From the NCBI GenBank assembly GCA_001822065.1, contig MHPJ01000004.1:12574-76573 (forward strand): 64,000 nucleotides of DNA, given 5' to 3'. The notes beneath the pieces are model-generated. The model was not told the DNA's origin. It searched no databases and saw only the letters and a program-made list of their open reading frames with translations. Positions 11,642-12,019 of the stretch are shown piece after piece. Each line of letters starts with the position of its first letter. The first letter of the stretch is position 1. Source of the stretch: Candidatus Staskawiczbacteria bacterium RIFOXYB1_FULL_37_44 (lineage in GTDB: Bacteria > Patescibacteriota > Minisyncoccia > Minisyncoccales > Staskawiczbacteraceae). Made by a program: the position numbers and the translations under genes.

Positions 11642-12019
11642 GTCATTGCGGAGCCCCGAGCAACGGCGAGGGGCGTGGCAATCCAGAGTATGGCCAATAA
11701 AACATATTATGTTTATATTTTAGCAAGTAAACGAAATGGAACATTGTACATTGGAGTAACAAACAATTTAAAACGAAGAATTTACGAATATAAAAATAAT
11801 TTAATAAAAGGATTTACAGAAAAGTATAATATTCACAATTTGGTTTATTACGAAGAAACAAATAATGTTAATATAGCAATAGAAAGAGAGAAACAAATTA
11901 AATCTTGGTCGCGGAAGAAAAAAATTGCGCTAATCGAAAAAAACAACCCAACATGGAATAACCTGACTGAAAAGTTTTGACTCTGGATTGCCACGCTCGC
12001 TTCGCTCGCTCGCAATGAC
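11642..12019. mobile_element. Full-length GTCATTGCGAG-family element carrying a GIY-YIG nuclease gene in its central loop
   Basis: Left arm gtcattgcggagc...ggcaatccagag (11642-11687) and right arm ctctggattgcc...ctcgcaatgac (11981-12019) bracket the ORF exactly. Confidence 0.75.
11690..11980 (+). CDS. GIY-YIG nuclease domain protein (UPF0213-like)
   Basis: YYVYILASKRNGTLYIGVTNNLKRRIYEYKNN is a GIY-YIG motif; 96 aa. Confidence 0.85.
   Translation: MANKTYYVYILASKRNGTLYIGVTNNLKRRIYEYKNNLIKGFTEKYNIHNLVYYEETNNVNIAIEREKQIKSWSRKKKIALIEKNNPTWNNLTEKF

Follow-up and report, generated by a model that had tools for sequence, protein, structure and literature searches.

This locus raises the question of how small hairpin repeats multiply in a bacterial genome, and whether a nuclease gene enclosed by two of them takes part. 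The window, by which we mean the whole analysed stretch of 64,000 nucleotides from Candidatus Staskawiczbacteria bacterium RIFOXYB1_FULL_37_44 (contig MHPJ01000004.1, positions 12,574 to 76,573), contains a GIY-YIG nuclease gene, here named ssn, that lies between two inverted repeat arms at 11642-12019, and ten further sites carry related repeats with no gene inside. The Ssn family of nucleases (CDD model cd10448) was characterised in 2025, and the multiplication of its hairpin repeats remains the question on which this locus bears. An earlier reading made from the DNA letters alone (the sequence-only reading) had proposed that the gene is the autonomous parent of a family resembling MITEs (transposable elements of the miniature inverted-repeat type). 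Judging from sequence comparisons, the locus is almost certainly an Ssn/SRM module (SRM, Ssn-related motif), that is, an ssn gene enclosed by a pair of inverted copies of the hairpin that its product recognises.

The reference point is SsnA of Neisseria meningitidis, a 94-aa single-domain GIY-YIG protein and a single-strand-specific DNA nuclease (Chenal et al. 2025, Nat Commun 16:2388; PMC11893778). It binds the hairpin repeat CGTCATTCCCGCG...GCGGGAATCYRG (NTS, CGTCATTCCCGCGMAVGCGGGAATCYRG) as single-stranded DNA (ssDNA) only and cuts a few nucleotides upstream, while double-stranded DNA (dsDNA), RNA and the complementary strand are not cleaved and RNA is not bound (PMC11893778). Recognition depends on the (C/T)GTC tag, the stem and the C behind it; the cut falls a few nucleotides 5' of the tag and extensions of the loop are tolerated, and homologs from three other species act alike on their own SRMs (PMC11893778). 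An SRM was found near 71% of the homolog genes and on both sides in 42%, and both the insertion sequence-like NTS-ssnA-NTS layout and the analogy with RAYTs and REPs (REP-associated tyrosine transposases and repetitive extragenic palindromes) were already pointed out (PMC11893778). The same repeats had been catalogued earlier as CGTC-tagged REPs that “lack a dedicated transposase”, a catalogue in which Neisseria dRS3 is found beside RPE-4 and RPE-6 of Rickettsia (Di Nocera et al. 2013, BMC Genomics 14:522; PMC3733652). The mechanism behind the repeat, which the sequence-only reading believed to be undescribed, thus has a literature in the Ssn family and its motifs (PMC11893778) and in the repeat catalogue (PMC3733652). 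Our follow-up literature search on Ssn found no demonstration of transposition.

The cassette consists of the following parts:

Left arm, 11642-11688, plus strand: long-loop Ssn-related motif, its final base 1 nt 5' of the ssn ATG.
ssn, 11690-11980, plus strand: 96-aa GIY-YIG open reading frame (ORF) with a single domain, of the Ssn family, in the same direction as the MacAB operon.
Right arm, 11981-12019, minus strand: inverted motif directly 3' of the TGA stop, with the reverse complement GTCATTGCGAGCGAGCGAAGCGAGCGTGGCAATCCAGAG.

Both the ORF scan and Pfam confirmed the GIY-YIG ORF between the repeat arms. Its product matches the Pfam family PF01541 (E 3e-15, residues 6-78), and Pfam gives no second domain. 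The comparison with SsnA was made with the ortholog from N. gonorrhoeae and not with the N. meningitidis protein itself. When the window protein was used in tblastn, it hit a single site in the N. gonorrhoeae chromosome (E 8e-24), where a 94-aa ORF carries Y6, Y17 and E64 and has NTS repeats on its flanks; this ortholog was taken from PLSDB entries NZ_CP119140.1 and NZ_CP119142.1, two 2.17-Mb N. gonorrhoeae chromosomes that are included in that plasmid collection. Pairwise BLASTP between the two proteins gave 55% identity without gaps (E 2e-34), which via the gonococcal ortholog places the window protein inside the family as delimited by Chenal et al. 2025, namely homology to Neisseria SsnA at E < 1e-10. 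The catalytic residues Y6/Y17/E64 of SsnA, which Chenal et al. 2025 had mutated, align with Y9/Y20/E67 in the window protein, and among 34 homologs Y20 and E67 are invariant and Y9 nearly so. A sequence search of PDB found a sole and weak relative, the UPF0213 protein BH0048 (E 0.001), and the NCBIfam scan gave no model above its cut-offs. A GIY-YIG homing endonuclease was considered and rejected, as there is no second domain and the group I intron endonuclease model scored 20.6 bits against a cut-off of 56; carriage by a phage was likewise rejected, with just one distant phage match. A protein identical to the ssn product is recorded from Candidatus Staskawiczbacteria RIFOXYD2_FULL_37.

The cassette reads GTCATTGCGGAG...GGCAATCCAGAG-T-ATG, 96 codons, and TGA-CTCTGGATTGCC...CTCGCAATGAC. 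The sequence-only reading was right that the TGA stop directly abuts CTCTGGATTGCC, and needs correction at the other end, where one base (T at 11689, after ...CCAGAG) and not three separates the arm from the ORF, and where the left terminus has one G more than was given and reads GTCATTGCGGAG. The left arm is built from the tag (AGT)GTCAT, a basal stem ATTGC/GCAAT, a distal hairpin GCCCC...GGGGC and the tail CCAGAG; as ssDNA it folds at -10.2 kcal/mol (z -2.07) with the distal hairpin closed by the basal stem. It is near-identical beside the paralog in locus L127 and beside the relatives in L129, L134, L136 and L139. The right arm is 87-90% identical to the cargo-less half units 7933(-) and 58155(-). 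Both arms share the tag, the basal stem and the tail with the cargo-less units, and have interiors of their own (76-90% identity); therefore the cargo-less dimers are not simple internal-deletion derivatives of the cassette.

If the arms belong to the gene, they should accompany it elsewhere, and this was examined at 80 loci obtained by scanning species-representative genomes, the encoded proteins being 54-71% identical to the window protein. The hosts are candidate-phyla bacteria, Proteobacteria, Planctomycetes, Chloroflexi, Cyanobacteria, relatives of Bacteroidota-Chlorobi, Omnitrophota and others. At most of these loci a hairpin lies a few bases 5' of the start codon and an inverted copy directly follows or overlaps the stop codon. 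With a deliberately strict detector the hairpin was found upstream of 61 and downstream of 62 of the 80 homologs, and on both sides of at least 50, so the consistent association of ORF and arms predicted by the sequence-only reading holds in other genomes. Among the canonical units that flank homologs (n=63 distinct), 99.2% of the cells in stem columns are paired and five of the eight stem pairs are changed on both sides. None of 500 shuffles equalled the observed pairing, the number of covarying pairs or the covariation score, and controls slid out of register pair in 18-52% of cells. GTC, A5, T24 and C25 are invariant in these units, which were selected on the GTC tag and the anchors A5, T24 and C25 and not on pairing, so that only the other columns are independent evidence. 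It is clear that the pairing of the hairpin is kept through compensatory changes.

In the closest relatives (L127, L129, L134, L136 and L139) the boundary CCAGAGT-ATG ... stop-CTCTGGATTGCC is nucleotide-exact, and the distal hairpin of the arm changes in sequence and stays a hairpin. Since these boundaries are exact at operon junctions that are unrelated to each other, the comparison argues that gene and arms may move as one unit. Just outside the right arm, many homologous loci (L016, L025, L027, L071 and others) repeat the half of the hairpin nearest the tag in stuttered, incomplete form, as in GGGAATGACA...GGGAATGACA. These partial copies may be scars of repeated events, since the outside of the arm is the side on which the nuclease is expected to cut.

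The repeats themselves are strongly enriched in the window. The terminal 11-mer GTCATTGCGAG occurs 20 times with at most one mismatch, compared with 0.70 expected and a largest shuffle value of 3. A more general search, which asked for a GTC tag and a stem of 5 bp or more with a C behind it, returned 25 units; 23 of these are convincing, where dinucleotide shuffles give 3.5 +/- 1.6. The basic repeating unit is the half element rather than the dimer, and consists of an unpaired (T/C)GTC tag, a stem opening with AT, an interior, the closing stem strand and C(C/T)NGA as the tail. The reading (T/C)GTCAT...ATC(C/T)NNN is common to all 23 units. Long loops are found in 21 of the 23, with a 5-6-bp basal stem ATTGC/GCAAT, an interior of 13-39 nt that often holds a second hairpin, and the tail CCAGAG. 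The canonical units 14670-14696(+) and 14713-14740(-) have perfect 8-bp stems with 4-5-nt loops; their ssDNA folds reach -9.0 kcal/mol (z -4.4) and -8.4 kcal/mol (z -2.7), respectively, and the pair 14670-14740 is a near-exact NTS. Compensatory stem variants occur within the window, with ATCGC/GCGAT at 60376 and the stems ATTCCCGC / ATCCCCGA at 14670 and 14713.

A unit can stand alone (5121) or tag-to-tag with another (14596/14634), and in most cases two units form an inverted pair with their tails together; the dimers are heterodimers of several half-unit subtypes. Two subfamilies of dimers can be distinguished, {7843, 45424, 53209} and {9442, 10274, 57345, 58062}, with 81-96% identity inside each across the whole dimer, and because this similarity includes the loop, it was whole dimers that were copied within the genome, at 85-96% identity. 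The ten cargo-less sites that the sequence-only reading listed are all there, namely eight dimers of 91-108 nt, the half unit 5121-5159 and the cluster 14596-14740:

5121-5159, minus strand: single half unit, in frame within a HemK/PrmC-like methyltransferase ORF (4731-5489).
7843-7933, no strand: dimer of two inverted half units with tails facing, upstream of an HlyD-like gene.
9442-9544, no strand: dimer that fills the HlyD-ABC junction, 96% identical to the 10274 dimer and inverted.
10274-10376, no strand: dimer that fills the ABC-MacB1 junction.
14596-14740, mixed strands: composite cluster, with long-loop half units tag-to-tag at 14596-14633(-) and 14634-14663(+), followed by a canonical dimer, 14670-14696(+) and 14713-14740(-).
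45424-45516, no strand: dimer between two minus-strand genes.
53209-53305, no strand: dimer within a 1020-nt insertion of the 16S rRNA gene, folding as ssDNA at -35 kcal/mol (z -7.7).
57345-57447, no strand: dimer that borders the EF-Ts gene at one side and shares 91% identity with the 9442 dimer.
58062-58155, no strand: dimer at the opposite side of EF-Ts, in inverted orientation compared with 57345.
60269-60376, no strand: dimer whose right half has the compensatory stem ATCGC/GCGAT.

The 7843 dimer folds as ssDNA at -29.8 kcal/mol (z -7.2) and is 85-86% identical to the 45424 and 53209 dimers, and for the canonical dimer of the composite cluster a three-way structure is predicted. The half unit at 5121-5159 encodes SGLPRRLRAPRNDT immediately ahead of the NPPY motif of the HemK/PrmC-like ORF, and recalls the in-frame palindromic elements of Rickettsia. 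The ABC ATPase gene (9442/10274) and the EF-Ts gene (57345/58062) are each bracketed by related, mutually inverted dimers, 96% and 89% identical, respectively, in a layout of dimer, gene and dimer that resembles the repeat-gene-repeat arrangement around surface-protein genes of Neisseria. The whole window was searched with Rfam at gathering thresholds and the region 11600-12320 at permissive E-values, and no family was found for the repeat or for the module adjacent to the cassette.

Are these elements insertions? The cassette lies between two MacB-type permease genes, 10386-11633 (MacB1) and 12289-13524 (MacB2), in agreement with the sequence-only reading, and the 655-nt gap between them holds the 378-nt cassette and a separate 269-nt non-coding module (12020-12288). 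The same operon, HlyD-ABC-MacB1-MacB2, is shared by 38 metagenomic loci, whose full-length MacB1 matches have 64-85% protein identity, which allows the spacing at three junctions to be compared:

MacB1-MacB2: 26 of the 33 loci that could be scored have -5 to +26 nt; 655 nt in the window.
HlyD-ABC: -16 to +19 nt in 22 of 24 relatives; 104 nt in the window, dimer-filled.
ABC-MacB1: no more than 34 nt in 25 of 33 relatives; 114 nt in the window, dimer-filled.

None of the relatives examined has ssn at the MacB1-MacB2 junction. At the ABC-MacB1 junction an ssn cassette with an in-frame TAG and extra cargo is found in L105, and by the locus listing also in P0011, for which the arms were confirmed on the short contig L139. 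Other cassettes lie between atpD and atpC, in L137 and in L127, the latter being an 80%-identical paralog from the same genome, so that this genome has at least two ssn copies. A further pair follows pilB, between pilB and pilC in L129 and at the end of a contig that stops before the next gene in L134. In every case the relatives' cassettes are co-oriented with the host operon and, as the gap between arm and ATG is 1 nt, ssn is probably expressed by read-through from the operon. In L097 an insertion terminates in a half unit of the window's own repeat family. We are highly confident that both cassette and dimers were inserted at operon junctions that are tight elsewhere, and on an evolutionary time scale such insertion has happened repeatedly.

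In the L105 homolog (2897-3160) the TAG replaces a conserved Tyr codon, and the same locus holds two dimers in addition, together with a 191-aa ORF that lies inside further hairpin units. A different ORF of ~115 aa lies in palindromic arms at the MacB1-MacB2 junction in L108 (5270-5625), L095 (1361-2240) and L121 (457-1235), flanked by TTTATAAAG-type repeats and in two of the three accompanied by a second cargo ORF; we take it to resemble a four-helix-bundle protein of the kind associated with 23S rRNA intervening sequences. Operon junctions in these genomes thus seem to be shared landing sites for several element types.

Known systems can be used to place the module. With SsnA/NTS it shares a single-domain GIY-YIG protein of ~95 aa, a hairpin-flanked gene, many repeat copies, mostly as intergenic dimers, the tag GTCAT and the tail TCYRG. 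It differs in its candidate-phyla host (Parcubacteria group), in the location of the cassette inside operons, in having 21 of 23 units with a 5-bp stem and a 13-39-nt interior where the NTS has an 8-bp stem and a 3-5-nt loop, and in its arms, which stand in strictly inverted orientation and adjoin the start and stop codons; the member described here is known from sequence. The unpaired (C/T)GTC tag, the stem opening with AT and the CCA-type tail are shared with the CGTC-tagged REPs, as are the predominance of head-to-head dimers and heterodimers and the occasional in-frame intragenic copies. Those REPs have no dedicated enzyme, stems of 8-9 bp and loops of 4-5 nt (PMC3733652), whereas the repeats of the window have a partner gene and long interiors. 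RAYT/REPIN systems (REPIN, REP doublet forming hairpins; Nunvar et al. 2010; Bertels and Rainey 2011) likewise have the enzyme gene inside inverted hairpin repeats, non-autonomous hairpin dimers scattered between genes, and recognition of the hairpin in ssDNA. Their enzyme is an HUH tyrosine transposase and their tag is GTAG, in contrast to a GIY-YIG nuclease and CGTC/TGTC tags here, so only the architecture is common to the two; furthermore, RAYTs are usually single-copy and ssn is not. TnpA of IS200/IS605 also recognises imperfect end hairpins on one strand and is linked to replication, but with TnpA the two ends are cut and joined again on a single strand by way of a covalent intermediate, while the cleavable sites of an inverted pair here would lie on opposite strands. 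Homing endonucleases of the I-TevI type have the GIY-YIG fold and are selfish genes in conserved loci; ssn differs by having no DNA-binding domain or intron/intein context and by a target in ssDNA beside a repeated hairpin and not at a unique dsDNA site.

Taken together, the explanation that we consider probable is that of an Ssn/SRM module whose hairpin unit also builds the cargo-less elements, as head-to-head dimers. An inverted pair would present two cut sites on opposite strands, at the two outer borders. Nicks would be made when the hairpins extrude on single strands, at replication forks or on incoming transforming DNA, and could seed the copying or the loss of an element via host replication and repair. 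The system would then act like a RAYT/REPIN partnership with a different enzyme, and identical nicks would also restrict motif-bearing incoming ssDNA, the function shown in Neisseria. Ssn-dependent propagation of the elements, as assembled here from these comparisons, is possible, and we lean slightly away from it. Rather more doubtful is the broader idea that Ssn with its hairpin dimers represents a new class of mobile elements, guided by hairpins in single strands and matching RAYT/REPIN with a GIY-YIG enzyme, for which a purely hydrolytic border nick would suffice to let host replication or repair copy the element.

Several observations weigh against this picture. GIY-YIG nucleases hydrolyse DNA without a covalent intermediate and are therefore unable to rejoin it as HUH transposases do; to our knowledge no hydrolytic GIY-YIG nuclease is a transposase, and we know of no joining activity. 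On either strand, just one of the two units of a dimer is oriented so that it could be cleaved. The biochemistry is that of homologs, the window protein and its long-loop hairpin being known from sequence. The published SRM pattern, HGTCWYN(0-2)YYVSBRHN(0-5)WNVSBRGN(0-2)RNCYNB with a stem of 8-9 bp and a loop of 3-5 nt, matches only two of the 23 units (14669-14696(+) and 14713-14741(-)), and because it catches the canonical units alone, the main family of the window is best described as a putative long-loop variant of the Ssn-related motif with partial membership, which would fit the reported tolerance of loop extensions. Several of the long-loop half units, folded by themselves, do no better than shuffled sequence, and the dimers fold far better, as one long imperfect hairpin (-24 to -35 kcal/mol), which in such a model could hide the individual recognition hairpins. 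No target-site duplication is visible at the ten cargo-less sites, and the search for a target-site preference gave T-rich flanks in an AT-rich genome, with no further insertion-site motif. Finally, 24 contigs from several samples carry the identical protein, and the six loci of this population that were compared are identical over 8.3 kb barring scaffold gaps, so that filled and empty sites are found among the operons of relatives and not within the population. The elements look static on an ecological time scale, while repeated insertion and copied dimers indicate that over evolutionary time the repeats were not. The sequence-only reading was to be given up if gene and arms proved inconsistently associated or the repeats static in comparisons of filled and empty sites; what was found is a consistent association, filled and empty sites among relatives, and dimers copied whole. 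Its parent-and-derivative claim therefore stands as far as the nuclease-repeat association is concerned, and is overstated with regard to the MITE-like descent, given the heterodimers, the differing interiors and the missing target-site duplication.

A different explanation, which we consider unlikely, is that Ssn is here a domesticated ssDNA restriction enzyme and nothing more, with hairpins that are host-maintained marks spread by ordinary recombination. As in N. meningitidis, it would cut transforming ssDNA beside the hairpins on entry and in this way modulate recombination. Restriction is the sole in vivo function demonstrated for the family (N. meningitidis; PMC11893778). The inverted dimers around the single ABC and EF-Ts genes, as in NTS-gene-NTS of Neisseria, and the lack of polymorphism of the locus in the population would both suit it, and candidate-phyla bacteria commonly carry DNA-uptake machinery, which we count on the same side. 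It leaves unexplained that ssn is precisely bracketed by its own sites, that two paralogous cassettes occupy unrelated junctions in one genome, and that there is an L105 copy with an in-frame stop and 54-71% protein identity across many lineages; the paralogous cassettes, the stopped copy and the identity across lineages are typical of a selfish, horizontally moving unit.

The location of almost all copies between co-directional genes or in a 16S rRNA insertion, together with the very stable long dimer hairpins and the argument of Di Nocera et al. 2013 for transcription of many REPs (PMC3733652), could also point to elements that are transcribed with their operons and work at the RNA level, as mRNA stabilisers, attenuators or RNase III processing sites in the manner of REPs or rRNA intervening sequences, with the nuclease gene as a passenger. 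We find this improbable, since the conservation goes beyond pairing and falls on the unpaired tag, the tail and an orientation-specific unit, SsnA is without RNA binding (PMC11893778), and the tight association of gene and repeat would have no explanation. A classical MITE family, in which internal-deletion derivatives of the cassette are moved by a transposase encoded elsewhere, would account for the terminal inverted repeats, the small size and the fact that some dimer loops open with GTA(T/C), like the GTATG of the ORF start region. Half units that occur alone (5121) or tag-to-tag (14596/14634), heterodimers of different subtypes with interiors unlike the ssn arms, the missing target-site duplication and the fact that Di Nocera et al. 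2013 found no transposase associated with the repeat class (PMC3733652) speak against it. It is the freely occurring half units, the heterodimers and the missing transposase that make us regard it as the least likely of all, and as very improbable.

The surroundings of the module contain features that deserve mention. The non-coding module at 12020-12288 (minus strand) directly follows the ssn right arm, is GC-rich, and has a strong minus-strand promoter, TTGACA-17-TATACT (12287-12259), and an intrinsic terminator at 12069-12049 (minus); its predicted ~200-nt RNA folds better than shuffles (z -3.1), and neither Rfam nor ARAGORN gave an Rfam or tRNA match. Modules with like ends and unalignable interiors follow the paralogous cassette in L127 and the cassette of a relative and are absent after others, and modules ending in the same promoter and terminator also occur alone in two relatives. 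The like modules are:

L127, 3343-3580.
L137, 1792-2080.
L139, 506-750.
L122, 350-824.
L098, at the ABC-MacB1 junction.

A conserved partner RNA of the cassette was rejected on the unalignable interiors, the absence after some cassettes and the negative Rfam and ARAGORN searches. The module could be a convergent small RNA, possibly for antisense control of ssn, or an unrelated RNA gene.

According to the bacterial small-subunit (SSU) rRNA model, the 16S rRNA gene (52049-54524, minus) has one 1020-nt insertion (~52486-53505) at model position ~1066-1071. Besides the 53209-53305 dimer it holds a 160-aa ORF (52623-53105) on the rRNA strand, which has no Pfam match and is bracketed by 27-nt inverted repeats (52566-52592 and 53140-53166). 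The tRNA beside this gene (51806-51882, minus) has an alanine-type acceptor stem (G3:U70) and an odd anticodon loop that ARAGORN reads as CUA. Such an anticodon suggested reassignment of a stop codon, which was rejected: TAG ends 10 of the 46 long ORFs of the window, and genome-wide reassignment of TAG is therefore unlikely.

The gene-repeat partnership, its biochemistry and the analogy with mobile elements are already published, and the locus adds a member to the known Ssn systems. What is new is the candidate-phyla host, the long-loop variant of the motif, the habit of occupying operon junctions and the explicit evidence from empty sites, where a conserved four-gene operon offers a clean comparison in which the cassette and the dimers are both insertions. 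Published repeat counts are probably underestimates, because the long-loop variant escapes the published search pattern. For those who use Ssn as an ssDNA tool, the variant suggests a family member that may have a different or more permissive specificity. If Ssn does propagate its hairpins, landing in the candidate phyla would favour operon gaps of a few bases between co-directional genes, and even insertions in rRNA genes and reading frames.

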